Shown here in pieces: positions 8,568-64,000 of a stretch of 64,000 nucleotides of DNA. Source of the DNA: Mobula hypostoma. Taxonomy: Eukaryota. The DNA is taken from assembly GCF_963921235.1 (NCBI RefSeq), contig NC_086108.1:11780001-11844000 (forward strand), written 5' to 3'. Made by a program: the position numbers and the translations under genes. How positions within the stretch are numbered: position 1 is the stretch's first letter; every line of letters begins with the position of its first letter. The notes beneath the pieces were generated by a model. That model was given only the letters and a program-made list of their open reading frames with translations. It was not told the origin of the DNA and did no database searches.

Positions 8568-10745
8568 ATAGAAACATAGAAACATAGAAAATAGGTGCAG
8601 GAGTAGGCCATTCGGCCCTTCGAGCCTGCACCGCCATTTATTATGATCATGGCTGATCATCCAACTCAGAACCCAGCCTTCCCTCCATACCCCCTGACCC
8701 CTGTAGCCACAAGGGCCATATCTAACTTCCTTTTAAACATAGCTAATGAACTGGCCTCAACAGTTTGCTGTGGCAGAGAATTCCACAGATTCACCACTCT
8801 CTGTGTGAAGAAGTTTTTCCTAACCTCGGTCCTAAAAGGCTTCCCCTCTATCCTCAAACTGTGACCCCTCGTTCTAGACCTCCCCAACATCGGGAACAAT
8901 CTTCCTGCATCTAGCCTGTCCAATCCCTTTAGGATCTTATACGTTTCAATCAGATCCCCCCTCAATCTTCTAAATTCCAACGAGTACAAGCCCAGTTCAT
9001 CCAGTCTTTCTTCATATGAAAGACCTGCCATCCCAGGAATCAATCTGGTGAACCTTCTTTGTACTCCCTCTATGGCAAAGATGTCTTTCCTCAGATTAGG
9101 GGACCAAAACTGCACACAATACTCCAGGTGTGGTCTCACCAAGGCCTTGTACAACTGCAGTAGTACCTCCCTGCTCCTGTACTCGAATCCTCTCGCTATA
9201 AATGCCAGCATACCGTTCGCCTTTTTCACCGCCTGCTGTACCTGCATGCCCACTTTCAATGACTGGTGTATAATGACACCCAGGTCTCGTTGCACCTCCC
9301 CTTTTCCTAATCGGCCACCATTCAGATAATAATCTGTTTTCCTATTTTTGCCACCAAAGTGGATAACTTCACATTTATCCACATTAAATTGCATCTGCCA
9401 TGAGTTTGCCCACTCACCCAACCTATCCAAGTCACCCTGCATCCTCTTAGCATCCTCCTCACTGCTAACACTGCCACCCAGCTTCGTGTCATCCGCAAAC
9501 TTGGAGATGCTGCATTTAATTCCCTCTTCCAAGTCATTAATATATATTGTAAACAACTGGGGTCCCAGCACTGAGCCTTGCGGTACCCCACTAGTCACCG
9601 CCTGCCATTCTGAAAAGGTCCCGTTTATTCCCACTCTTTGCTTCCTGTCTGCTAACCAATTCTCCACCCACACCAATACCTTACCCCCAATACCGTGTGC
9701 TTTAAGTTTGCACACTAATCTCCTATGTGGGACCTTGTCAAAAGCCTTTTGAAAATCCAAATATACCACATCCACTGGTTCTCCCCTATCCACTCTACTA
9801 GTTACATCCTCAAAAAATTCTATGAGATTCGTCAGACATGATTTTCCTTTCACAAATCCATGCTGACTTTGTCCGATCATTTCACCGCTTTCCAAATGTG
9901 CTGTTATCACATCCTTGATAACTGACTCCAGCAGTTTCCCCACCACCGACGTTAGGCTAACCGGCCTATAATTCCCCGGTTTCTCTCTCCCTCCTTTTTT
10001 AAAAAGTGGGGTTACATTAGCCACCCTCCAATCCTCAGGAACTAGTCCAGAATCTAACGAGTTTTGAAAAATTATCACTAATGCATCCACTATTTCTTGG
10101 GCCACTTCCTTAAGCACTCTGGGATGCAGACCATCTGGCCCTGGGGATTTATCTGCCTTCAATCCCTTCAATTTACCTAACACCACTTCCCTACTAACAT
10201 GTATTTCGCTCAGTTCCTCCATCTCACTGGACCCTCTGTCCCTTACTATTTCTGGAAGATTATTTATGTCCTCCTTAGTGAAGACAGAACCAAAGTAATT
10301 ATTCAATTGGTCTGCCATGTCCTTGCTCCCCATAATCAATTCACCTGTTTCTGTTTGCAGGGGACCTACATTTGTCTTTATCAGTCTTTTCCTTTTTACA
10401 TATCTATAAAAGCTTTTACAGTCCGTTTTTATGTTCTCTGCCAGTTTTCTCTCATAATCTTTTTTCCCCTTCCTAATTAAGCCCTTTGTCCTCCTCTGCT
10501 GAACTCTGAATTTCTCCCAGTCCTCAGGTGAGCCACTTTCTCTGGCTAATTTGTATGCTACTTCTTTGGAATTGATACTATCCCTAATTTCTCTTGTCAG
10601 CCACGGGTGCACTACCTTCCTTGATTTATTCTTTTGCCAAACTGGGATGAACAATTGTTGTAGTTCATCCATGCAACCTTTAAATGCCTGCCATTGCATA
10701 TCCACCGTCAATCCTTGAAGTGTCATTTGCCAGTCTATCTTAGCT
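8568..10745 (-). mobile_element. Young 5'-truncated CR1 LINE
   Basis: (TTTCTATG)n tail on the minus strand; intact RT ORF; probable TSD TAAATAA at 8561-8567 and 10745-10751. Confidence 0.95.
8666..10745 (-). CDS. CR1 ORF2 reverse transcriptase, uninterrupted for about 690 codons, endonuclease domain missing
   Basis: [39 protein letters not shown] and KFADDTK motifs. The first ~40 aa of the 733-aa track ORF come from flanking DNA. Confidence 0.9.
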
Positions 10746-11589
10746 AAATAAACAACATATTTCTCTATATACGTGATAAATAAATTAATCTGAATCTGAA
10801 CATATAAATTACTGAAAGAGCACAGAGAGATAATGATTGGTTTTCCACTCAATTGACTCTTGATCACATACTCTCTCTAAATTTGTCTCTACTTCCACCA
10901 ATTTATAATCAATCAGACCCTTGCATCCCAGATCAAGCACCCAAGAACGATAATATTCTCTAATCTTAGGTTCTCTGATGCTTTCTCTAATGGGGAAACA
11001 GTGCATTTTGAGTACTACATTTCCAGTAGAATTGATAATGAACGCTGTGCTGTTGTATTTTTTTCAATGTGATCTTAATGAACACATTAATAGTAGTCTG
11101 CTGTGCCTTCGCGTGGGCTGTGGTAGTGGTGTGGCTTGGGAACTCTAAGTGCTTTGACTGCTTGATGCCTGTTAAATCTTCAGCCTCACGTGTCAAATTC
11201 ACTGAAGGAACATCTTGTGGAGCGAGAGAGGAGATCATCATCAAGCTGAGGTGTAGATGCCAGTAAACATATTTAAGTGTTTGCCAAGTGGCGTAGATGC
11301 CTCATTAGATCTTGCTGGGCAAAGACACGTCTTGACATCCTGGTTCCCTAGCAACAGGGATAAGCTGCTCTATCTAATTACAATCAGCAAAACAGACCTC
11401 TGTCACATTTCAGTTTGAGGTAGATAATTAATTCATAACTTCTTGCTGCTTTATGGTTTTCCCTCAAAAATACAATCAATTTTATTTCTCATTAATTTGA
11501 TAACAAAGCTACATCCGTGAATTGGCAAGTGTGAGTGAAATAGGTGAATGTCAGGAATGTTCTGGAGCTGGGTACCTGGTTGCATGACT

Positions 11590-12919: not shown

Positions 12920-13055
12920 AAACAAGAGAAAATCTGCAGATGCTGAAAATCCAACCAACACACAAAATTCTGAAGGAATGCGGCAGGCCAGGTGGCATCA
13001 ATGGAAAACAGTACAGTCGACGTTTAGGGCCAAGACCCTTCAACAGGACTGGGGA
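12920..13055 (-). mobile_element. Penelope pseudo-LTR fragment with a mutated hammerhead motif
   Basis: AAATCTGCAGATGCTG...CAGTCGACGTTTAGGGCCAAGACCCTTCAACAGGACT is similar to 28515-28610. Confidence 0.75.
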
Positions 13056-13104
13056 AAAAGATGAGAAGTCAGGTGGAATTTAATGCAGACAAGTGTGAGG
13101 TGTT

Positions 13105-16817: not shown

Positions 16818-17659
16818 ATTTAGGGTGAAAGGTAATATATTTGAGGGGAATATGAGGGGGTAAATCTTCACTCAGAGGATGGTGTGAGTGTGGAACAAGC
16901 TGCCGGAAGATCTAGTAGATTCAGCTTCAGTTGCAAGATTTATGAAATTTGGATAGGTACATGGATGAGGAGGGTTTGGAGGAATATGGTCGGGGTGTAT
17001 TTAGGTAGGACTAACAGAAATCTAGGCTGGCATGGACTAGATGGGCCAAATCCCTGTTTCTGTCCTCCATGCTCTGTGACTCTGTGATTTCCCATGAATT
17101 TCCTACTCATCTTCAACCAAATTGGAGGGCATCTTTGAATCTTTTTCTCTGTTAACATTATGTCTAGATGGTTTGAAAGAGAAAGAGAAGCATGCAGAAG
17201 ATTCAGGCAATGCTGGACGTCAGTTGGGGATAAGGAGGATAGCTAACTAATCTCATCACTGGCACTGTAGTCAGGAATCATGTACAGAACTTGTCCAGTC
17301 TCCTCTCAGTCACCAGCATGGTGGACAGTGCTGTTAATTGTTCTCTTCTTTGCCACTTAACAATAATTGCCTGGTTGAACTACTTATAGTATATGCATGT
17401 TTAGTATGTTTCCTAATGGCCACAGTGTGCATATGCAATGGTTACAGTTCCTTGTTTCATTCTGGAAAGTTCTGGAAGCTTCTCTGGCATTGTAATATTT
17501 AAATATTTTTATTGAGTATAGGTCCAGAGCCGTCAAACACCCCTCATACATTAACCCTTCCAATTCCAGAATCATTCCTGTGAACATCCTCTGATCCCTG
17601 TTTAACGACAGCACAGCCTTTCTTAGATAAAGGGCTCAAAACTGCACATCACATAGAGT

Positions 17660-17885
17660 AAACACGAGGAAATCTGCAGATGCTGGAAATTCAAGCAACA
17701 CACACAAAAATTACTGGTGAATGCAGCAGGCCAGACAGCATCTATAGGAAGAGGTACAGTCGACGTTTCGGGCTGAGACCCTTAGTCAGGACTTGAAGGG
17801 TCTTGGCCTGAAACGTCGACTGTATCTCTTCCTATAGATGCTGCCTGGCCTGCTGCGTTCACCAGTATTTTTTGTGTGTGTTGCG
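17660..17885. mobile_element. Penelope-derived fold-back mini-element
   Basis: About 17695-17785 is the reverse complement of about 17795-17884; both arms are Penelope terminal sequence. Confidence 0.85.
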
Positions 17886-18149
17886 TCACATAGAGTAGAC
17901 GGGCCAAAGGGCCTGTTTCTAGTTCTCTATGACCCTAAAACCACCAGGTCGATCAGAAGGTTTGTGACACAATTTGTGTTATACAAGTTAATATTTAAAG
18001 GTAATTGATAACTATTGTATAAATAGTTAATTTTACCAACATTAGTAATTAACTGAAAAGCCTTATTATATAAACTAACCATATTACAAGTTAAACTAAC
18101 ATTTTTGAACAACATCAATCCAGAGATTGAAACCTTATTTTTATTTTAT

Positions 18150-19431: not shown

Positions 19432-19622
19432 GCACACGAAATGCTGGAGGAACTCAGCAGGACAGGCAACATCTATGGAAAACAGTAAATAGTCGACTTT
19501 TCGGGCTGAGACACTGCTTTGGTCCAGAATGTCAACTCTTTACTCTGTTCCATAGATGTCACTTGACCCGCTTAGTTCCTCCAGCATTTTGTGTGTGTTG
19601 TTTGGATTTCCTGCATTTGGAG
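19432..19622. mobile_element. Older Penelope-derived fold-back mini-element
   Basis: CACACGAAATGCTGGAGGAACTCAGC...GCTTAGTTCCTCCAGCATTTTGTGTGTG inverted arms. Confidence 0.75.
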
Positions 19623-25724: not shown

Positions 25725-28128
25725 CCTGATTAGTTCCAAGGGTTTAGATGGGGCAGAGTTTGTTAAGTGTGTCCAGGATGGATTCCTGTCACAGTATGTG
25801 GACAGGCCGACTAGGGGGAATGCCATACTAGATCTAGTACTAGGTAATGAACCGGGTCAGGTCACAGATCTCTTAGTGGGTGAGCATCTGGGGGACAGTG
25901 ACCACCACTCCCTGGCCTTTATAATTATCATGAAAAAGGATAGAATCAAAGAGGACAGGAAAATTTTTAATTTGGGAAAGGCAAATTATGAGGCTATAAG
26001 GCTAGAACTTGCGGGTGTGAATTGGGATGATATTTTTGCAGGGAAATGTACTATGGACATGTGGTCGATGTTTAGAGATCTCTTGCGGGATGTAAGGGAT
26101 AAATTTGTCCCAGTGAGGAAGATAAAGAATAGTAGGGTGAAGGAACCATGGGTGACAAGTGAGGTGGAAAATCTTGTCAGGAGGAAGAAGGCAGCATACA
26201 TGAGGTTTAGGAAGCAAGGATCAGCTGGGTCTATTGAGGAATATAGGGAAGCAAGAAAGGAGCTTAAGAAGGGGCTGAGAAGAGCAATAAGGGGGCATGA
26301 GAAGGCTTTGGCGAGTCGAGTAAAGGAAAACCCCAAGGCATTCTTCAATTATGTGAAGAACAAAAGGATGACAGGAGTGAAGGTAGGACCAGTTAGAGAT
26401 AAAGGTGGGAAGATGTGCCTGGAGGCTGTGGAAGTGAGCGAGGTCTTCAATGAATACTTCTCTTCAGTATTCACCAATGAGAGGGAACTTGATGATGGTG
26501 AGGACAATATCAGTGAGGTTGATGCTCTGGAGCATGTTGATATTAAGGGAGAGGAGGTGTTGGAGTTGTTAAAATACATTAGGACAGATAAGTCCCCAGG
26601 GCCTGACGGAATATTCCCCAGGCTGCTCCACGAGGCGAGAGAAGAGATTGCTGAGCCTCTGGCTAGGATCTTTATGTCCTCGTTGTCCACAGGAATGGTA
26701 CCGGAGGATTGGAGGGAGGTGAATGTTGTTCCCTTGTTCAAAAAAAGGTAGTAGGGATAGTCCGGGTAATTATAGACCAGTGAGCCTTATGTCTGTGGTG
26801 GGAAAGCTGTTGGAAAAGATTCTTAGAGATAGGATCTATAGGCATTTAGAGAATCATGGCCTGATCAGGGACAGTCAGCATGGCTTTGTGAAGGGCAGAT
26901 CATGTCTAACAAGCCTGATAGAGTTCTTTGAGGAGGTGACCAGGCATATGGATGAGGGTAGTGCAGTGGATGTGATCTATATGGATTTTAGTAAGGCATT
27001 TGACAAGGTTCCACATGGTAGGTTTATTCAGAAAGTTAGAAGGCATGGGATCCAGGGAAGTTTGGCTAGGTGGATTCAGAATTGGCTTGCCTGCAGAAGG
27101 CAGAGGGAGTACATTCAGATTGGAGGATTGTGACTAGTGGTATCCCACAAGGATCTGTTCTGGGACCTCTACTTTTCGTGATTTTTATTAACGACCTGGA
27201 TGTGGGGGTAGAAGGGTGGGTTGGCAAGTTTGCAGACGACACAAAGGTTGGTGGTGTTGTAGATAGTGTAGAGGATTGTCAAAGATTGCAGAGGGACATT
27301 GATAGGATGCAGAAGTGGGCTGAGACGTGGCAGATGGAGTTCAAGCCGGTGAAGTGTGAGATGGTGCACTTTGGAAGGACAAACTCCAAGGCAGAGTACA
27401 AAGTAAATGGCAGGATACTTGGTAGTGTGGAGGAGCAGAGGGATCTTGGGGTACATGTCCACAGATCCCTGAAAGTTGTCTCACAGGTGGATAGGGTAGT
27501 TAAGAAAGCTTATGGGATGTTAGCTTTCATAAGTCAAGGGATAGAGTTTAAGAGTCGCGATGTAATGATGCAGCTCTATAAAACTCTGGTTAGGCCACAC
27601 TTGGAGTACTGTGTCCAGTTCTGGTCGCCTCACTATAGGAAGGATGTGGAAGCATTGGAAAAGGTACAGAGGAGATTTACCAGGATGCTGCCTGGTTTAG
27701 AGAGTATGGATTATGATCAGCGATTAAGGGAGCTAGGGCTTTACTCTTTGGAGAGAAGGAGGATGAGAGGAGACATGATAGAGGTGTACAAGATAATAAG
27801 AGGAATAGATAGAGTGGATAGCCAGCGCCTCTTCCCCAGGACACCACAGCTCAATACAAGAGGACATGACTTTAAGGTAAGGGGTGGGAAGTTCAAGGGG
27901 GATATTAGAGGAAGGTTTTTTTACTCAGAGAGTGGTGGGTGCATGGAATGCACTGCCTGAGTCAGTGGTGGAGGCAGCTACACTAGTGAAGTTTAAGAGA
28001 CTACTAGATAGGTATATGGAGGAATCTAAGGTGGGGGCTTATATGGGAGGCAGGGTTTGAGGATGGGCACAACATTGTGGGCTGAAGGGCCTGTAATGTG
28101 CTGTACTATTCTATGTTCTATGTTCTAT
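25725..28128 (+). mobile_element. Fairly young 5'-truncated CR1, ORF2 broken by frameshifts
   Basis: ORFs 25798-26751, 26723-27133 and 27070-27960 are consecutive ORF2 parts; (TTCTATG)n tail. Confidence 0.95.
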
Positions 28129-28569
28129 AGGAGGATGTGACGATTTGGATACCGTGTTTTGAATTTCGAAAAAAACATTTGATAAGGTGTTACATCAACA
28201 ATGATCCTACAATAGGAACATGATGAAACGGAAGTGATATCTGGTATGGGTACAGGATGAGTTAACTGCACGGACAGTAAAACAACAGAAGGTCAGAGTG
28301 TGTGTCACCTGCCCAGGATGGGTGTACTGGAGGTCAGGGTATATGTCAAATGCCAGATCAGGTGTACAGGAGATCAGGGTGTGTGTCACCTGCCAAGGTT
28401 GTGTGTACAGGAGGTCAGGGTGTGTGTCACCTGCCCAAATCAAGTATACAGGAAGATAGGGTGGATGTCACCTGCCCAGGTTGGATGGATAGGAGGACAG
28501 GATGTGTGTCACCTACATCAAAGTTGCTGGTGAACGCAGCAGGCCAAGCAGCATCTATAGGAAGAGGCG

Positions 28570-28607
28570 CAGTCGACGTTTCAGGCCGAGACCCTTCATC
28601 AGGACTA
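28570..28607 (-). ncRNA. Minimal type-I hammerhead ribozyme motif in the Penelope pseudo-LTR
   Basis: Minus-strand RNA UAGUC-CUGAUGA-AGG(GUCUCGG)CCU-GAAAC-GUC-GACUG has the complete core, stems I and II, and a palindromic ACGU in place of stem III. Confidence 0.8.
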
Positions 28608-30486
28608 ACTGAAGGAAGAGTGAGTAAGGGATTTGAAAGCTGGAAGGGGAGAGGGAGATGCAAAATGATAGGAGAAGACAGGAGGGGGAGGGATAGAGCC
28701 GAGAGCTGGACAGGTGATAGGCAAAAGGGGATACGAGAGGATCATGGGACAGGAGGCCTAGGGAGAAAGACGGGGGGGGGGGGTGACCCAGAGGATGGGC
28801 AAGAGGTATATTCAGAGGGACAGAGGGAGAAAAAGGAGAGTGAGAGAAAGAATGTGTGCATAAAAATGAGTAACAGCTGGGGTACGAGGGGGAGGTGGGG
28901 CCTAGCGGAAGTTAGAGAAGTCAATGTTCATGCCATCAGGTTGGAGGCTACCCAGACGGAATATAAGGTGTTGTTCCTCCAACCTGAGTGTGGCTTCATC
29001 TTTACAGTAGAGGAGGCCGTGGATAGACATGTCAGAATGGGAATGGGATGTGGAATTAAAATGTGTGGCCACTGGGAGATCCTGCTTTCTCTGGTGGACA
29101 GAGCGTAGATGTTCAGCAAAGCGGTCTCCCAGTCTGCGTCGGGTCTCACCAATATATAAAAGGCCACATCGGGAGCACCGGACGCAGTATATCACCCCAG
29201 TCGACTCACAGGTGAAGTGATGCCTCACCTGGAAGGACTGTTTGGGGCCCTGAATGGTGGTAAGGGAGGAAGTGTAAGGGCATGTGTAGCACTTGTTCCG
29301 CTTACACGGATAAGTGCCAGGAGGGAGATCAGTGGGGAGGGATGGGGGGGACGAATGGACAAGGGAGTTGTGTAGGGAGCGATCCCTGCGGAATGCAGAG
29401 GGGGGGGGAGGGAAAGATGTGCTTAGTGGTGGGATCCCGTTGGAGGTGGCGGAAGTTACGGAGAATAATATGTTGGACCCGGAGGCTGGTGGGGTGGTAG
29501 GTGAGGACCAGGGGAACCCTATTCCTAGTGGGGTGGTGGGAGGATGGAGTGAGAGCAGATGTACGTGAAATGGAGGAGATGCGTTTAAGAGCAGAGTTGA
29601 TAGTGGAGGAAGGGAAGCCCCTTTCTTTAAAAAATGAAGTCATCTACCTCGTCCTAGAATGAAAAGCCTCATCCTGAGAGCAGATGCGGCGGAGACGGAG
29701 GAATTGCGAGAAGGGGATGGCGTTTTTACAAGAGACAGGGTGAGAAGAGGAAAAGTCCAGATAGCTGTGAGAGTCAGTAGGCTTATAGTAGATATCAGTG
29801 GATAAGCTGTCTCCAGAGACAGAGACAGAAAGATCTAGAAAGGGGAGGGAGGTGTCGGAAATAGACCAGGTAAACTTGAGGGCAGGGTGAAAGTTGGAGG
29901 CAAAGTTAATAAAGTCAACGAGTTCTGCATGCGTGCAGGAAGCAGCGCCAATGCAGTCGTCGATATAGCGAAGGAAAAGTGGGGGACAGATACCAGAATA
30001 AGCACGGAACATAGATTGTTCCACAAACCCAACAAAAAGGCAGGCATAGCTAGGACCCATACGGGTGCCCATAGCTACACCTTTAGTTTGGAGGAAATGG
30101 GAGGAGCAAAAGGAGAAATTATTAAGAGTAAGGACTAATTCCGCTAGACGGAGCAGAGTGGTGGTAGAGGGGAACTGATTAGGTCTGGAATCCAAAAAGA
30201 AGCGTAGAGCTTTGAGACCTTCCTGATGGGGGATATGCACACATTCTTTCTCTCACTCTCCTTTTTCTCCCTCTGTCCCTCTGAATATACCTCTTGCCCA
30301 TCCTCTGGGTCACCCCCCCCCCGTCTTTCTCCCTAGGCCTCCTGTCCCATGATCCTCTCGTATCCCCTTTTGCCTATCACCTGTCCAGCTCTCGGCTCTA
30401 TCCCTCCCCCTCCTGTCTTCTCCTATCATTTTGCATCTCCCCCTCCCCCTCCAGCTTTCAAATCCCTTACTCACTCTTCCTTCAGT

Positions 30487-30524
30487 TATTCCTGACGAAG
30501 GGTCTCGGCCTGAAACGTCGACTG
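30487..30524 (+). ncRNA. Second hammerhead motif in the inverted pseudo-LTR
   Basis: UAUUC-CUGACGA-AGG(GUCUCGG)CCU-GAAAC-GUC-GACUG, with one mismatch in stem I. Confidence 0.72.
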
Positions 30525-31671
30525 CGCCTCTTCCTATAGATGCTGCTTGGCCTGCTGCGTTCACCAGCAACTTTGATGTATGTTGCTTGAATTTCCAGCA
30601 TCTGCAGAATTCCTGTTGTATGTGTGTCACCTGCCCAGATCAGGTATACAGGAGGACAGGGTGGATCTCACCTGCCCAGGTTGGATGTACAGGAGGACAG
30701 GATGTGTGTCACCTGCCCAGATCGGGTGTATAGGAGGTCAGGGAGTGTGTGTCACCTACCCCGATCAGGTATATTGAGGTCAGGGTGTGTGTCACCTGCC
30801 CAGATAAGGTGTATGGAAGGTCAGGGTGTGCTTCACCTGCCCAAATCAGGTGTACAGGAGGACAGGTTGGATGTTACCTGCCCAGGTCGGAGACACAGGA
30901 GGTCAGGGTGTGTGCTACCTGCCCAGATTGTGTGTACAGGAGGTCAGGTCTGTGTCACCTGCCCAGATTAGGTATACAGAAGGTCAGGCTCAGTGTCACC
31001 CGCCCAGGTTGTGTGTACAGGAGGTCAGTTCAATGTTAACCTACACAGAGGGGGAGTTGGCTGAAATGTTTCCCGAGAATTGAGGATACAGACATCTGGA
31101 AGCTGCTTTGTTGCAAATAATACACAAAATTTGAATTCAGATATTGTAAATAAACAGTTAAACTAACATTTGTATTGACTGTTTTGGGCGATAAATCTGC
31201 TTTCCTTCAGCGCACCTGATGTTTGATAAATCCAGTGGAACAGCTACCAGCAAGCAGAGTGGCAGAGAACTGACTGCTAGGAAGCAGTGTGGGCTTCTGG
31301 TTTAGCTGATGTCCCCTGAGGGGTTTCCCCCACTGAGAGCACAGACTGGTCCCACCTCACCACACGTCTACACTTGCCCCATCCTGAAAACTGCCCATCT
31401 TCCTCACAGACAATCACCATGCTTTCCACATAGAATAGCTTGCTCACAGTCCCCAAGGGCTCTCTCCGAGCTGCTGATAAATGTGCTGTGCTGAGCTAAA
31501 ATTAGTTTATTATTCATTCGTTCTATACAGCGGCAACACGCGTCTCCACAAATTGCATTTGCTTCTCTCTGCTCATTACAGCACCAGGCAAGTGGACAGG
31601 GATAGGACTGTCATCACAGCTTAACTACATCCTTCGGAGCTCAGATGAACAATGGACATCAGCATGGGGCA

Positions 31672-31875
31672 AGCACCCTGACCTTCTGTACGCCATCCCA
31701 GGTCAGGTGACACTCCCGAACTCCTGTACGCCAACCCAGGGCAGGTGACACACACCCTGACCTCCTGTACGGCAACCAAGGCCAGGTGACACATACTCTG
31801 ACCTCTTATACACCAGAATGGGGCAGGTGAGGTACACCTTGACCTACTGTAGAGACACCCCCTGACCTTCTGTAA
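31672..31875 (-). repeat. Same 41-bp minisatellite in the opposite orientation, about 4-5 units
   Basis: CCCTGACCTCCTGTAC...CAGGTGACACACA is the reverse complement of the unit. Confidence 0.88.
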
Positions 31876-32669
31876 CTTTACCTAGTGGCATTTGAGTTTC
31901 TGCCGGTACCGAGAGGAAGGAAGTCCCAGACTCTGCCCCATGGCCACTCCAGACCAGTAAGGTTGCAAGGCCACAGAACGGGGTCACTACAATTGCCCCC
32001 TCAGCACAGCACACCAAACTCCAGCCCCAGTTGTCTGGGAAGGAAGGTATGAGAGGGGGCATGAGGTTGAAATGTATTGCTCTCCCACAAGCTCCTGCCC
32101 ATGGTGAGCTCTGCTGTCGATGTGATTCCTGGCTTCACACAAACTGCAGATCGGCACCGGGCTTTAATCATTGGGAAGGTACCAGGGGATTCATCACACC
32201 CACCCACACCTCTCAAACCCTTTGTTTTATGCGTCAGCTGAGCCTGTGGAAAATCTAATTCAACCCACAATAAGAGCTACGGTTAGAGCTGCTAACGCAA
32301 TTGCACTCAGACCAAAACTTAACAGTCTGTGTTGCATTTCCATGGCATTAAAAATATCATCAGATTGTTGGATATTGAAGTCTTCAAACCTTTAGAAGCC
32401 CCACTGGACACCAATACCTGCACTGGTGGTTTTGGAGCCAGAGATGGGTGTTCTTGGCTGGAGCAGTAGGGTTTCAGGAGGATCTTTGAGGGACAGCTTT
32501 GCTGAGGGGCAAGGTGTGGTGGAACAATGGGTGGCCTGGTTTGGAGAAGTTCTGTGATATTCACCTGCAGTTGAGGTCACAGATGTGAAAAGAGGTGTCA
32601 TCTGCCTGTCTCAGTCCCTGACAGCAGATCAAGTATTGCGCAATCTCTCATTGGGATGTCTATATACTG

Positions 32670-33060
32670 ATTTAAAGAAGCTTTCCTGTACATATTTGAT
32701 AAACTCTATCCCACCAGGTCCTTTTACAGTATGGGATTCCCAGTCAATATGGAGAAAAATAAAATCAGCTACTTTCCTAGAGCAGCCTGCGCTCTCTCTA
32801 CCAAATTTGCTCCTCTAAATTCCACTGACCAGTGGGTGGTTTATAAAACAGCCCCATTAATGTGGTCATACCTTTCTTAGTTCCACCAGTATTGCCTCAG
32901 TAGACGAGCTCTCCAGCCTGTTCTGTCTGAGCACTGGCATAGTAATCTCAGCACTCCCCCTTTAAATACCTCCCGCTCTACCATGACCAAAGCAACAAAA
33001 CTGTAGAGCACTGGCCTGCCTGTCCAGTCCTGCCCTTCCTGCAACTAAGTCTCACTGATG
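32670..33060 (-). mobile_element. Old CR1 endonuclease-region fragment
   Basis: Similar to 40740-41160 (CTTTTACAG.ATGG...CCCAGTC; CAAATTTGCTCCTC.AATTC). Confidence 0.6.
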
Positions 33061-34179: not shown

Positions 34180-34500
34180 AAGCAACACACACAGAATACT
34201 GGAGGAACTCAGCAGGCCAGACAGCATCCATGGAAAAGAATAAACAGTCGACATTTTGGGCCAAGACTGGAATGGACTGGAGTGGAAGGGGAAAAGTCAG
34301 AGTAGAAAGGTGAGGGAAGGGGAAGAAGAAGTATGGTAGCAAGTGATAAGTGAAAATAGGAGAGGTGGAGGGGTGAAATAAAGAGCTGGGAGGTTGATTG
34401 GTGAAAGAGATAAAGGGCTGGAGGAGGGAGAATCTGATAGAGAGGTCAGGAGACCATGGACTAAGCAAATATGGAGAGATCCAGAGCAAGGTAAGATGCA
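34180..34500 (-). mobile_element. Old Penelope pseudo-LTR fragment
   Basis: CTGGAGGAACTCAGCAGGCCAGACAGCATC...CAGTCGACATTT followed by a purine-rich tract like 28620-28760. Confidence 0.7.
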
Positions 34501-36589: not shown

Positions 36590-37088
36590 CATTACCATGG
36601 CTAAACATTTTAATTCCGATTTCCATTCCAGTTCCAACATGTCGGACCATTACCACCCCTTGCGTCAAGATGAGGTTACTCTCAAGGTAGAGGAGCAACA
36701 ACTTCTACTCACTCTGGGTAGCCTCCAACCTGATGGCAAGGATATCAATTTCTCTTTCTGGTAAACTAATTAACCGTCCCATTCTGACCTTTTACCTCTC
36801 CTCACCTGCCTATTACTTTCCCGGGTCCCTCCTTCTTTCCTATCTCCTACTGTTCATTGCCCTCTCCAATCAGATTCCTTCTTCTCCAGCCCTTGATCTT
36901 TCCCATTCACCTGGTTTTACCTATCACCTTCCAGCTATCCTCCTTCCCCTCCCCTCTACCTTTTTATTCTGGCAACTTCCACCTTCCTTTTCAGTCCTGA
37001 AGAAGAGCCTCGACCGGAAATGTTGACTGTTAATTCATTTCCATAGATGGTGCCAGACCTGCTGAGTTCCTTCAGCATTCTGTGTGTG
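36590..37088 (+). mobile_element. Penelope 3' fragment (end of GIY-YIG plus pseudo-LTR)
   Basis: AKHFNS..HS.S.MS...LK.EEQ.L...LGSLQPDG..I.FS; decayed hammerhead CAGTC-CTGAAGA...GAAATGTTGACTG near 36992-37029. Confidence 0.85.
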
Positions 37089-37319
37089 CTATTCTTTTGA
37101 CAGATTTTGTGAAGAAGACTCAAAGGAGCAGATGCGCACAGTGACTGGTAGGGATGTAAACAGCTTTATCCTCAATACCCTGCTCTTGGTCAGAAGCTTC
37201 TCTCGATCTCCACAATATAAGTTCTCATCCAGCTGTTCTTTGAATATGATGGGGCTCTCTGTGTCCATCAATGCTTTCTGTGTCCATGACTGCTTCTGCA
37301 AGGATTTGCTGACATTGGA

Positions 37320-54282: not shown

Positions 54283-55336
54283 CTGACCTTTTCAGAATGG
54301 CAGGCAGTGACTAGTGGGGTACCGCAAGGCTCAGTGCTGGGACCCCAGTTGTTTACAATATATATTAATGACTAGGATGAGGGAATTAAATGCAGCATCT
54401 CCAAGTTTGCGGATGACACGAAGCTGGGCGGCAGTGTTAGCTGTGAGGAGGATGCTAAGAGGATGCAGGGTGACTTGGATAGGTTGGGTGAGTGGGCAAA
54501 TTCATGACAGATGCAATTTAATGTGGATAAATGTGAAGTTATCCACTTTGGTGGCAAAAATAGGAAAACAGATTATTATCTGAATGGTGGCCGATTAGGA
54601 AAAGGGGAGGTGCAACGAGACCTGGGTGTCATTATACACCAGTCATTGAAAGTGGGCATACAGGTACAGCAGGCGGTGAAAAAGGCAAATGGTATGTTGA
54701 CATTTATAGCAAGAAGATTCGAGTACAGGAGCAGGGAGGTACTACTGCAATTGTACAAGGCCTTGGTGAGACCACACCTGGAGTATTATGTGCAGTTTTG
54801 GTCCCCTAATCTGAGGAAAGACATCCTTGCCATAGAGGGAGTACAAAGAAGGTTCACCAGATTGATTCCTGGGATGGCAGGACTTTCAAATGAAGAAAGA
54901 CTGGATGAACTAGGCTTATACTCGTTGGAATTTAGGAGATTGAAGGGGGATCTGATTGAAACGTATAAAATCCTAAAGGTATTGGACAGGCTAGATGCGG
55001 GAAGATTGTTCCCGATGTTGGGGAAGTCCAGAACGAGGGGTCAGAGTTTGAGGATAAAGGGGAAGCCTTTTAGGACCGAGATTAGGAAAAACTTCTTCAC
55101 ACAGAGAGTAGTGAATTTGTGGAATTCTCTGCCACAGGAAACAGTTGAGGCCAGTTCATTGGCTATATTTAAGAGGGAGTTAGATATGGCCCTTGTGGTT
55201 AAAGGGATCAGGGAGTATGAAGGGAAGGCTGGTACAGGGTTCTGAGTTGGATGATTAGCCATGATCATACTGAATGGCGGTGCAGGCTCAAAGGGCCGAA
55301 TGGCCTACTCCTGCACCTATTTTCTATGTTTCTATG
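54283..55336 (+). mobile_element. CR1 3' 1 kb, same subfamily as 8568-10745
   Basis: ORF 54511-55245 is almost identical to the C-terminus of the 733-aa ORF; same tail. Confidence 0.95.
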
Positions 55337-55629
55337 TCGGTGATAATAAATCTGATTCTGATTGTGTTTCTGACAAAATGCCAGAGGAACTAAACAGATT
55401 AGGTATATCTCTTCAGGGGAATAAACTGTCATCATTCTGGGCCAATACCCTTCGTCAGGACTGGAGAGTAAGTTCCAGTTCGTTGGTATTCAACTGTACA
55501 CATATATACTGCCAAAGGTTCCTCCAGACCAAGGTCCATAATGCAGCACATTATAGTTGCCACATGTTGCAAAGACAACAAATTTCATGATTATGCTGGT
55601 GATATTAAACCTGATCAGATAACATGTAA

Positions 55630-58600: not shown

Positions 58601-59225
58601 CTCAGATCTGAAGGTAAATCTCTCAGCCATGACTTCTGATTTGCCATCACATAAACATGAGAAATTCTGGAGATGCTGGAAAATCCAAAGAAAAGGCTGG
58701 AGGAGCTCAGCAGACCAGGCAGTATCTATGGAAAGTGTGAACAGTCAACGCTTCGAGCCAAGAGCCTTCTTCATCCCACATTCCCAGCTGTGTCCGCACC
58801 TCTGCTGTCAGCCATGCGTTCATGTAGTTGTGTTTAATAATGTTGACAGCCTTAGTGCACATCTCTATGTAGCCAGTCACAGCTCATCAATGTTAATGTG
58901 ATGGTCGAAGGTCACCACCTCCCTGAGTATGCTCCAGTCCATGTTCTTAAAACAGACTTGTAATGCTGCGGTTGCTTCTTCTGGCCAGGTCTTTATTTCC
59001 CTTTCATCTAGTTTGCCCTGGGGAAAAAGCCTCTGGAATTATGCAGGAACTAGTATAACAGATAAGAGGTCTGAGAATTCAATGTGGGGAAGGGAAGCTG
59101 CTTTGTATGCACCAGGAATGTTGGTATAATCCAGATCTAATGTGTTCTCACCTCTGAGAATGAAGTCAACATTCCAATAGAATTTTGTCAGGGCTGTCTT
59201 CTTAAATTGGCACGGTTGAAGTTGC
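55630..59225 (-). mobile_element. Long decayed Rex1/Babar LINE (end of APE to 3' UTR) with nested inserts at about 56425-57070, 57845-58580 and 58655-58775
   Basis: Minus strand reads TLDLDYTNIPGAY (near 59120), WPEEATAALQVCF (near 58970), LNDSHPVALTS and DPFQF (57176-57418), and ICNWILDFLTERP (57151). Confidence 0.75.
57845..58580 (-). mobile_element. Unclassified non-coding retroposon, copy 2
   Basis: Similar to the reverse complement of 35105-35885. Confidence 0.7.
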
Positions 59226-59249: not shown

Positions 59250-59490
59250 CAAGGGGTACTGCAGAAGCTGGAAATCTAGGTCATACACATCATGTGCTGG
59301 AGGAACTCAGAAAGCCAGGCACCATCTATGGAAGTGAATAAACAGTTGATGTTTCAGGCCGAGACCATTGATCAAACCATCTGGGTGTGTTGTCTCGGCC
59401 TGAAGCACTGAATGTTTACTTTTTCCATAGATGCTACCTGATCTCCAGCATCTTATGTGTGTTGTTTTGCATTTCCAGCATCTTCAGATT
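59250..59490. mobile_element. Penelope-derived fold-back mini-element
   Basis: CTGCAGAAGCTGGAAAT...CATCTATGGAA...TTCAGGCCGAGAC and GTCTCGGCCTGAA...TTCCATAGATG...ATTTCCAGCATCTTCAG form inverted arms. Confidence 0.78.
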
Positions 59491-59491
59491 T

Positions 59492-60710
59492 TAGAAAACC
59501 TACAGCACAATAGCTGTGCTGAACATGTCCTTACCTTAGAAATTACCTAGGGGTTACCCTTAGTCCTCTATTTTTCTGTGCTCCATGTACCTATCCAGGA
59601 GTCTCTTAAAAGACCCTTTCATATCCACCTCCACCACCATCGTCGACAGCCCATTCCACGCACTCACCACTCTCTGCATAAAAAACCTACCCTTGACATC
59701 TCCTCTGTACCTACCTCCAAGGACCTTAAAACTATGCCCTCTCGTGCTAGCCATTTCAGCCCTGGGAAAACAGCCTCTGACTATCTACACAATCAATGCC
59801 TCTCATCATCTTATACACTTATACATTTTCCTGTGGGTGTGTGGCTTGCACGTCACTGATAGCACTACAGAACTCATGGAGAGCTTCCCCAGCATGAGGT
59901 GGCATGGGGCAGGTGGGGGGTGTGTATAGACCCACAAGCACAGTAGCAGTGTCTATGTAAGACTCTCATAAATGTCCCTTATGTATCTGCTTCTACCGTC
60001 ATCTTTGGCAGGGCGTTCCATGTACGCAGCACCCTCTGTGTGAAAATGTTATTGCTGACATCCCCTGTATACTTTCCTCCAAACCCCTCGTATTAGACAT
60101 TTCTGCCCTGGGGAAAAGTCTCTGGTTCTCCAACTTACCTCTGCCTCTTATCATCTTGTACACCTCTATCATGTCATAAGACCATAAGACAAAGGAGCAG
60201 AATTAGGCCATTTGACCCATCAAGTCTGCTTGCCATTCTATCATGGCTGATCCATTTTACCTCAACCAGATTCACCTGTGCTCTCCCCATAACCTTTGAC
60301 ACCCTAGATGTCAAGAACCTATCCACGTTATATATACCCAATGACTTGGCCTCCACAGCCACCTGTGGAAACAAATCACACAGCTTCGCCACCCTATGTT
60401 TAACGAAATTTCTCCTCATATCTGCTGTAAAGGATTGTCCTTGTATTCTGAGGCTGTGCCTTCTGGTCCTACACTCTACCACAATAGGAAACATCCTCTC
60501 CAGATCTACTCTGTCAAGATCTTTCAATATTCGACAGATTTCAGTGAGATCGCTGTCATTCTTCTAAGCTCCAACAAGTACAGGAAAGAGCTATTAAGCG
60601 CTCTTCATAAGTTAACACTGTCATTCTTGGGATCATTCTCGTGACTATCCTCTGGACCATCTCCATTTCAGCACACCTATTCTTAGATAAGGGGCCTGAA
60701 CTTGCTCATA
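59492..60710 (-). mobile_element. Cluster of CR1 3' fragments (59492-59820, 59960-60172, 60175-60710)
   Basis: TRGHSFKV...FFMQRVVSAWNGL; LDRVDLERMFP...TRRHSLRI; CATAAGACCATAAGAC tail. Confidence 0.8.
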
Positions 60711-60759: not shown

Positions 60760-60855
60760 AAACACACAAAAAAATGATGGAGGAACTCAACAGGCCAGGC
60801 AGTATCTAAGGAATAAAGAGTCAACATTTCAGTCCGAGACCCTTCATCAGGACTC
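60760..60855 (-). mobile_element. Penelope pseudo-LTR fragment with a near-intact hammerhead core
   Basis: Minus strand AGTC-CTGATGA-AGGGTCTCGGACT-GAAATGTT-GACT. Confidence 0.7.
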
Positions 60856-61200
60856 ACAGCATGTCATGGAAGGACAGATATCAGTTCAGTTGGAAGTCAG
60901 CCCGAGGCTAATCAATGGCAGGAGAAAATAGGAAATTTAATGGGTCAAGTTTGTGGCCATGTTCTAAATACTTGTGGTCTGCTTGTCAATGACAAAGCAC
61001 TGCTCAACTCAGCCCAGTGATTTCTGCACAAACTTATCCTCAATTTACAAACAGATGCCTATCTAACTAAATCTTGAGAACTTTGTTGCAGTATAAGACT
61101 GCGACCAGTAATTTCTAGAAAAAGAGTCCTTGTACTTACATAGCAGCCTGGCAACTCAGCTAACAGTTGTGTAAAAATATATTCAGTTAGTGCTATAGAT

Positions 61201-62910: not shown

Positions 62911-64000
62911 ATGAATGTTGACGGCTTCCTGGCATCACCAGCCCCGGCGGTATTAGCGAAGGTGAAAAAGGATGATGTATTAAAGATTGCTAGACGGTTA
63001 GACCTTAAAGGAATATTGGTGGTTACAACTAAGCCAGTAATTCAGAGGAAAATCGTGGAACACTATGCAAATTCGGGAGTTTTTGATGAAGCAGAGTTAG
63101 ATAGGTTCCCTGTAAGTAAAGAAGCGATCCAGTTATACATGGAATAGGTAGCGTTAGAGAAGCTTAGAGTAGAAGCTGACTTAAAACAGAAACAATTAGA
63201 AGCTGACTTGGAACAAAGTCAGTTAGAAGCTGCAAATAAACAGAGGGAATTTGAACTCGTGATAGAGTGGTTAAGGTCTGAGAATCAGTCCTCTGGTTCT
63301 AGGAAACTGTTTGTTGCTAGTTAGGAAGTTAAATTGGCTCCTCCATTTAATGAGGCAGAAGTTGATAAGTACTTCCAGCATTTTGAGACAGTTGCTCGGA
63401 TTTCAGAGTGGCCGAAAGAGAAATGGCCAGTGCTGTTACAAAGTGTAATTAAAGGTAAAGCAAAACAAGTTTATACAGTTTTAACTGATGAACAAGCACT
63501 TGATTATGATATCGTGAAGCAGCATATACTGAAAGCATACGAACTGGTTCTGGAAGCTTATAGAGAAAGATTTAGAAGTTTGAAGAAATCTATGGACCAA
63601 ACTTATGTGGAATTTGCTTATGATAAATCTGTGTGTTTTGAGCGATGGGTTACCTCTAAAAATGTGAATGGGAAGTTTGATACCTTGAAAGAGTTGATTT
63701 TAATGGAGGAATTTAAAAGGTGCATCCCTGTTGACGTAAGGACATACTTGAATGAGAGAGACACTGCCACACTGCAGGAATCTGCTAAATTAGCAGATGA
63801 GCATGCTTTAATCCATAAGAGTAAATTTCCTACAGGTACAACTTTTAAGAAAAAAATTAGCATGGATAGTCAGAGTAGACCAAAAATCAAATCAGAAGTT
63901 AGTGAGAAAGGTAAGGAGGAAGGGAAACAAGTGAAGGAAAGACCTTTGGGTCCTATTTGTAATTATTGCAGGAAAGCTGGTCATGTAATAGCTAACTGTT
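62911..64000 (+). pseudogene. gag: Gypsy gag (coiled coil, SCAN-like capsid region, CCHC knuckle); two in-frame stops; runs off the window
   Basis: One frame from MNVDGFLASP: ...FETVARISEWPKEKWPVLLQSVIKGKA...DYDIVKQHILKAYELV.EAYRERFR...LKELILMEEFKR...AKLADEH...CNYCRKAGHVIANC; TAG at 63145 and 63322. Confidence 0.88.

Follow-up and report, generated by a model that had tools for sequence, protein, structure and literature searches.

Insertions of endonuclease-bearing Penelope-like elements (PLEs) are described as carrying an inverted 5′-truncated copy of the element and a one-sided tail of 30-40 bp (PMC8557442, Fig. 2 legend), and inverted pseudo-LTRs (pLTRs) with duplications of 9-10 bp have been reported (PMC3846280). 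Among these elements, the Neptune/Nematis group is marked by a Cys linker (CX2-5CXXC) (PMC8557442; PMC3846280). Minimal hammerhead ribozymes (min-HHRs) have been noted in PLEs, sometimes as pairs of motifs that are 100-700 bp from each other and on opposite strands; a highly conserved G10.1-C11.1 pair is part of their description, and dimers of the minimal hammerhead are said there to cut weakly (PMC4209133). Concerning the insertion reaction itself, the protein of a Poseidon element from the anole is reported to cut and extend both strands in vitro, reverse transcription starting at two sites that bound the tail (PMC11167929). Hammerheads also occur in the non-LTR retrozymes, which are presented as non-coding head-to-tail tandem units with a hammerhead in each and which, according to the abstract of the same preprint, are excluded from introns (bioRxiv 10.64898/2026.07.22.740005). 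Our literature search, made on titles dealing with Penelope together with hammerheads, host introns, dsRNA or small RNA, listed none on the ray family treated here or on the cleavage of a host pre-mRNA by an inverted PLE copy, and a search joining Penelope, Neptune, shark and ray returned no paper.

The present analysis deals with a stretch of DNA of 64 kb, hereafter the window, in which an earlier note had proposed a Penelope element whose pseudo-LTR termini bear minimal hammerheads. The presence of reverse transcriptase (RT), GIY-YIG and hammerhead core motifs bears out this identification. The locus at 28515-30619 very likely results from a single recent insertion, into the genome of a batoid (ray), of a Neptune-type Penelope-like retrotransposon present in very many copies; the inserted copy is now dead. 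It has the standard inverted-plus-tail Penelope build and is an ordinary, real feature.

The insertion, its target and its family

The main body (28515-30233, minus strand) is, from its translation and protein matches, a 5′-truncated Neptune-type Penelope-like element, whose 3′ end lies at 28515 without a tail. It begins within the RT, the alignment starting at residue 224 of the relative P0002. The RT fragment itself (29647-30233, minus strand) was delineated by protein matches and corresponds to the C-terminal part with YIDD, truncated on its 5′ side. Among the matches listed (best 120 of 612), its identity reaches 92% with a Mobula protein and 90% with a Hypanus protein, as compared with 72-79% for most shark proteins and about 55-65% for unnamed metagenome and coral proteins. 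Because the closest of the proteins listed are those of Mobula and Hypanus, the host is probably a ray. A Pfam search of the RT fragment alone gave no match, the relatives P0002, P0005 and P0031 matching RVT_1, and a profile search of solved structures at E 0.01 returned 0 matches for the RT.

Downstream of the RT, the translation shows a C-X4-C-X2-C linker of the Neptune/Nematis type (29280-29306, minus strand), which recurs in other members of the family: of the 120 relatives listed, 72 extend as far as the YIG motif, and 51 of these have the linker. A GIY-YIG endonuclease domain with CCHH residues follows (28974-29198, minus strand), as judged from the translation and from a PF01541 match (E 2.6e-4) whose score of 21.7 bits is slightly below the cut-off of 22.6. 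The label Neptune is proposed from the linker motif and the homologs, the same linker being found in Nematis. The body is collinear with the single-ORF relatives P0005, P0030, P0031 and P0067. The order typical of PLEs, RT then C-terminal GIY-YIG with CCHH in one ORF, can be recognized despite two lesions that break the frame. One is a premature stop seen in the translation (29644-29646, minus strand) and private to this copy, 99.7% of the depth of DNA run X1 at 29646 reading another base than the stop-making one. The other is a frameshift at a homopolymer run (29398-29414, minus strand), where the tblastn alignments with P0005 and other relatives break. The ORF ends with a stop at 28902-28904, 300 nt upstream of the left hammerhead. 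The earlier idea that the inverted arms enclose the RT and GIY-YIG coding region therefore holds for the presence of both domains but has to be qualified, since the region starts inside the RT and carries the stop and the frameshift.

As previously noted, near-identical inverted arms of about 350 bp are found at 28514-28862 and 30234-30580 (349 and 347 nt); they align in blastn with an E-value of about 1e-173. They differ by four substitutions (right-arm positions 30442, 30449, 30489 and 30496) and by 2 nt in homopolymer length. Their description as inverted termini, in the sense of terminal repeats, has to be abandoned: the arm alignment identifies the left arm (28515-28862, minus strand) merely as the 3′ end of the body, namely most of its 3′ UTR/pLTR end, whereas the right arm extends 39-40 bp beyond. 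The right side is a second, inverted and 5′-truncated copy of the 3′ end (30234-30619, plus strand), placed head-to-head with the body. At the junction, the interior of the RT meets the interior of the 3′ UTR with a 1-nt microhomology, the base at 30234 fitting both sides, and without a palindrome. The one-sided tail of 39-40 bp (30580-30619, plus strand) is missing from the left arm, and 270 contigs of run X1 leave the aligned stretch at 30619, the tail end. Two other identities were considered and ruled out, a DNA transposon with terminal inverted repeats by the RT plus GIY-YIG and the unequal ends, and a non-LTR retrozyme by the fact that the locus is a coding remnant with units that are inverted, not tandem.

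The insertion is flanked by the two parts of a 41-bp minisatellite array, on the left at 28285-28514 (plus strand; TRF period 41, 5.6 copies) and on the right at 30620-31028 (plus strand; TRF period 41, 9.9 copies). A target-site duplication is found at its borders. The left copy (28502-28514, plus strand) measures 12-13 bp, as its last base fits the arm too, and is identical to the right copy of 13 bp (30620-30632, plus strand). Removal of the element together with one 13-mer restores the 41-bp period; if both 13-mers are kept, one step of 54 bp results. This duplication of 13 bp was absent from the earlier note. The locus combines the inverted pLTR orientation, the tail at one end and the short target-site duplication of endonuclease-bearing PLE insertions.

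The element belongs to a very abundant family: as many as 311,068 contigs of DNA run X1 align to 1.8 kb. The depth of X1 is about 1 million at the RT end and climbs towards the ribozyme, where it attains 9-10 million, as expected from 5′ truncation; this is a summed depth and gives no copy number. The two arms agree at 30292, 30393, 30399, 30434, 30526 and 30547, positions where 58-77% of the family depth reads another base, and the sharing of these six minority bases argues that both derive from one source. Their divergence (4/347) amounts to 0.6% per arm, and the body has at least 8 near-private changes in 1371 bp (0.6%) among the 40 of 174 variant rows listed. Decay is even between arm and body, and we are dealing with one young insertion. 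A search of viral contigs with a 25-base family pattern gave 0 matches. The possibility of a truncation hotspot at stem I, raised by 387 contig ends before 30490, was not retained, being unproven, as the consensus of these ends (agreement 0.37) resembles other subfamilies. Such other subfamilies, with copies at 13048 and 36997, have just the ribozyme region in common.

The same build is encountered at other loci. A miniature version at 17661-17885 is flanked by a duplication of 12 bp, and one of its arms is tailed. Inverted repeats of at least 60 bp occur in 16 of 80 related metagenome loci. Three such relatives (L001, L024 and L069) were compared, and a duplication was found in L069 only; there, a 758-bp inverted arm adjoins the truncation point, with a one-sided extension and a 13-bp duplication, identity reaching 47% in the best segment. 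Older copies of the window, near 59250, 12920, 60770 and 36600, had either no duplication or one too short to be convincing, of 7 bp at best.

The hammerhead motifs

Each arm contains one minimal hammerhead in sense orientation. The left one, of type I (28570-28607, minus strand), has its core CUGAUGA at 28602-28596 and a predicted cut between 28575 and 28574. In the right one (30487-30524, plus strand), the core CUGACGA is at 30492-30498 and the cut is predicted between 30519 and 30520. The motif announced for each arm, CUGA(U/C)GA followed by GAAAC-GUC with a palindromic ACGU in place of stem III, was retrieved in both, together with an extra A and a 4-bp stem II. A pairing stem I had likewise been attributed to each; this is correct for the left motif (5/5) but not entirely for the right one (4/5), which has a U-C mismatch at 30489. 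The latter change is private to the copy, 98% of the family depth in run X1 showing the pairing base; the base at 30496 is likewise specific to this locus. When compared with the core of minimal hammerheads, both arms display CUGANGA...GAAA..NUH, an extra nucleotide after A9 and a palindromic 15.2-16.2. Neither has the G10.1-C11.1 pair of the metazoan minimal hammerhead: on either side, the closing pair 10.1-11.1 of stem II is G-U, the position being a CpG site, and the copy at 17667-17794 keeps C where both arms have U.

Over the whole 64-kb window, a strict descriptor retrieves just these two motifs, on opposite strands. The Rfam hammerhead models, which the earlier note had suggested as a check, did not recognize them: a scan of 26000-33000 at E up to 10 gave no hammerhead and two matches, both of them weak and to snoRNAs. 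Such a missing match would be expected for motifs devoid of stem III. Predicted minimum-energy folds of the monomer and of the homodimer differ from the active form.

Conservation of the motif was considered at two levels. Among distant relatives, 80 metagenome loci were sampled, of which 40 reach the ORF end and 35 continue past it for 300 nt or more; some are near-duplicates (L001, L002), so that not all are independent. A core is found 60-354 nt downstream of the ORF in 16 of these 35 eligible loci (controls: 0 antisense, 0 within the ORF and 0.12 in shuffled sequences). With a stricter descriptor the count is 7 of 35, the controls being at 0. The stems of the hammerheads in these relatives differ in sequence yet still pair. 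Among nine other copies in the window, a small sample from subfamilies of mixed age, the majority base is found in 74 of the 84 cells of the 11 core columns, against 254 of 295 in control columns, and 0 of the nine pass the strict descriptor. The excess conservation of core positions across copies, by which the earlier note proposed to judge the ribozymes, is therefore not seen in this small set. As judged from these alignments, conservation of the motif concerns the element as such and not its individual inserted copies. Its maintenance across distant relatives suggests that it has a part in the life cycle of the element itself. It probably serves the RNA of the active element, by protein-assisted or dimeric processing of tandem transcripts. 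In the copy at 28515-30619, the motif is now decaying.

Proposed origin of the insertion and possible consequences of read-through

The insertion exhibits a duplication, two outward-facing 3′ ends lying 40 nt apart in the template, a head-to-head junction and disabling lesions. The following scenario may be envisaged. The GIY-YIG/RT protein would cut both strands of the target about 13 nt apart, and each free 3′ end would prime cDNA synthesis close to the 3′ terminus of RNA, the same source element having supplied the template for both. The two cDNA start sites would be about 40 nt apart and would bound the tail. The cDNAs would stop after about 1.72 kb and 0.39 kb and would then be joined, fill-in of the cut target yielding the 13-bp duplication. 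Since the hammerhead is within 130 nt of both start sites, any double-ended insertion would copy the motif twice. Opposed hammerheads would thus be a by-product of double-ended insertion. The priming steps in this scenario are modelled, by analogy, on in vitro work with an element of another clade, Poseidon.

Another way of producing the inverted arm, and a rival for the joining step in particular, would be self-priming, that is fold-back on the antisense template, or a template switch to the nascent strand. Fold-back has been put forward for head-to-head PLE insertions (PMC3846280), and both routes likewise predict a single source for the two arms. However, the fold-back proposal relies on palindromes at the junction, whereas the junction here has a 1-nt overlap without a palindrome, and fold-back alone leaves two different outer ends, 40 nt apart, unexplained; we regard this origin as unlikely. 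In a family as extremely abundant as this one, with its hundreds of thousands of contigs in run X1, two independent side-by-side insertions may also be imagined, or else an artefact of assembly, as such PLE structures are known to trouble assemblies (PMC8557442). Both are hardly credible here, since a single duplication encloses the two parts and since the arms share minority alleles, yet have four differing sites and unlike outer ends. Double-ended insertion with two priming sites is the reading retained. A single locus has little weight in this respect; it is a clean textbook example, useful as test material. With young double-ended copies, counts made in a many-copy Neptune family would be a test of the two-site priming model, the in vitro demonstration concerning so far one Poseidon element (PMC11167929).

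What would happen if the locus were transcribed from outside? As the earlier note rightly pointed out, a read-through RNA in either direction would contain one sense ribozyme and a hairpin of about 350 bp, the arm duplex being predicted at -745 kcal/mol. From there, it had suggested that a host pre-mRNA could be cleaved at the locus. In such a case, the locus would lie within a host pre-mRNA and the sense hammerhead would cut after GUC. The core of the left motif is indeed intact and its stem I has 5 bp, the 64-kb window might sit inside one very long intron, and co-transcriptional folding could in principle briefly beat the long duplex. Nevertheless, whatever the direction of transcription, the antisense copy is made first and the sense ribozyme follows with the second arm; in the predicted folds of 28400-30750 in both directions it is entirely paired to the antisense arm. 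The 38-nt duplex is worth -69.5 kcal/mol, whereas the ribozyme stems amount to -7.7 in the left motif and -1.5 in the right one. With the sense ribozyme fully duplexed, cleavage and dsRNA roles would be mutually exclusive at equilibrium. Moreover, the right motif suffers from its stem I mismatch, and a dimer partner in cis is lacking, each strand of the 64 kb having a single sense copy by the strict descriptor. In the published work, a minimal hammerhead monomer did not cut (PMC4209133), and the anole motif is described as needing the element's protein, with no RNA-seq ends at the cut site (PMC11167929).

A search for host exons points in the same direction. Masking for self-similarity and for matches to transposon proteins takes up about 60% of the window. 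Pfam was run on 237 of the 316 unmasked stop-to-stop frames of at least 38 aa, those omitted being mostly the shortest, and revealed no host exon, a search that short or poorly conserved exons escape. The sole match among the 237 frames was a SCAN domain at 63325-63999, with a zinc knuckle, which we take to be an LTR-retrotransposon gag; as a host exon it was rejected for its zinc knuckle and gag-like character. With the ribozyme fully duplexed in the predicted folds and no host gene found in the window from these 237 frames, cleavage of a host pre-mRNA at this locus is extremely improbable, and that part of the earlier proposal is not retained.

The other consequence put forward, a source of dsRNA, is physically plausible but has already been described for Penelope in Drosophila (PMC3681739). 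The hairpin of about 350 bp would be A-to-I edited or diced, and would feed small RNAs against the family or affect a host transcript. The very stable arm duplex speaks for such an activity, as does the precise match of siRNAs to inverted regions in Penelope-transformed D. melanogaster (PMC3681739). Family sequence is also abundant in run X9 (18,224 contigs), whose RNA nature is a guess. In contrast, none of the 24 contigs listed (357,726 more exist) ties RNA to the locus. A>G and T>C places number 25 and 18 in X9, presumed RNA, versus 29 and 19 in DNA run X1, without any excess, in contigs that pool copies and drop rare variants. The locus is also young, one among very many similar copies, and bears no sign of selection. 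A dsRNA activity of this particular locus is thus decidedly unlikely. If such hairpins were edited or diced in rays, they would constitute a large natural source of dsRNA in cartilaginous fishes. Finally, one may imagine an insertion turned into a regulator inside a long host transcript, where the inverted arm would act as an antisense clamp, as predicted by folding, holding the ribozyme off, and the 350-bp hairpin would be edited or diced to give family-directed small RNAs; this model is very doubtful. Were it true, double-ended Penelope insertions in rays would act like the inverted Alu pairs of primates, to which their hairpins, edited or diced, may be likened.

Comparison with known systems

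As in the inverted-repeat copies of Penelope in Drosophila, the arms of the ray locus could pair into long dsRNA in a read-through transcript; for the former, transcription and small RNAs were demonstrated according to PMC3681739, the ray locus being known from sequence and predicted folds. With the metazoan min-HHR as described in PMC4209133, the motifs share the CUGANGA/GAAA core, the extra A between 9 and 10.1, a stem I of 4-5 bp (fully paired in the left arm), the palindromic 15.2-16.2 and the absence of stem III. They deviate from it by a short stem II of 4 bp closed by G-U and, in the right copy, by the stem I mismatch.

Resemblance to Poseidon PAc of the green anole lies in a tail bounded by two positions and in the joining of both target ends to element 3′ ends (PMC11167929). 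Unlike the ray element, the PAc clade is described there without a Cys linker, and PAc is intact and active, whereas the ray copy is dead. PAc is also reported to favour AT-rich sites (PMC11167929); the target of the ray copy is a 41-bp minisatellite of moderate GC. With the Neptune clade, the element has in common an RT, a C-X4-C-X2-C linker, a C-terminal GIY-YIG with CCHH and a hammerhead downstream of the ORF.

A close likeness is to the endonuclease-bearing PLE insertions described in PMC8557442 and PMC3846280, with which the locus shares the head-to-head 3′ end, the 39-40-bp tail, the short duplication, the 5′ truncation and a tandem-repeat target. The duplication of 13 bp is longer than the 8-10 bp given in these sources for rotifer PLEs, a difference that is not one of kind. 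As truncation has removed everything upstream of the RT interior, the direct upstream pLTR of the published insertions is missing here. The opposed hammerheads and the mirror-image ends are the usual scar of a Penelope insertion, an architecture that has already been published.

Target repeat and other copies of the family

The 41-bp minisatellite into which the main element, a Neptune-type Penelope-like insertion (28515-30619), has inserted extends over 28285-31028 (+), and occurs a second time, inverted, about 650 bp rightward (31674-31875, -). The outer ends of these two stretches have some 15 bp in common, in inverted orientation. Possibly, the minisatellite belongs to a different element as its subterminal repeat, and that element would then have been host to the insertion.

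At 17661-17885 the same family has left a miniature insertion of palindromic form. It consists of two truncated 3′ ends placed head-to-head, the left arm bearing the tail, within a 12-bp duplication (17649-17660 and 17886-17897); one of its hammerhead cores is mutated and the other is cut off. Older, decayed 3′-end stubs of related subfamilies lie at 59250-59495, 12920-13060, 34180-34275, 36590-37090, 58655-58775 and 60762-60870. The stub near 59250 is also an inverted pair, as in the main element. Finally, L069, a distant metagenomic relative, is built like the main element (L069:2186-4503), with a duplication of equal length, 13 bp.

Other repeats and open frames

On the minus strand, an open frame of 736 aa (8666-10876) encodes a LINE RT. 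The 95% identity of its partial copy at 54285-55337 suggests that this LINE family is young. At 63325-63999 (+), a zinc knuckle accompanies a SCAN domain (E 5.8e-10) in an open frame that continues past the window edge; we take this frame to be an LTR-retrotransposon gag. An imperfect palindrome of 163 bp (19433-19595, 76%) showed no relation to the main element when the window was compared with itself.

Ray proteins with host-gene names

Among the matches listed (120 of 612), three NCBI ray proteins, P0003, P0006 and P0011, match the RT piece of the main element at 72-91% and bear the names of host genes: chitinase domain-containing 1, divergent protein kinase domain 1C and nicotinamide riboside kinase 1. 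Upon inspection, the sequences of P0003 and P0006 are essentially Penelope ORFs. The three names probably stem from Penelope copies annotated within those genes.

A splice-site-like sequence before stem I

In both arms of the main element, a pyrimidine tract followed by CAG immediately precedes stem I of the hammerhead on its 5′ side (30460-30491, +; 28603-28634, -). The same arrangement is observed before stem I at 36975-36996 and 13049-13062. Judged from its sequence, this motif resembles a 3′ splice site. In the D. virilis Penelope, the end of the intron is reported to fall at helix I's 5′ end (PMC4209133).
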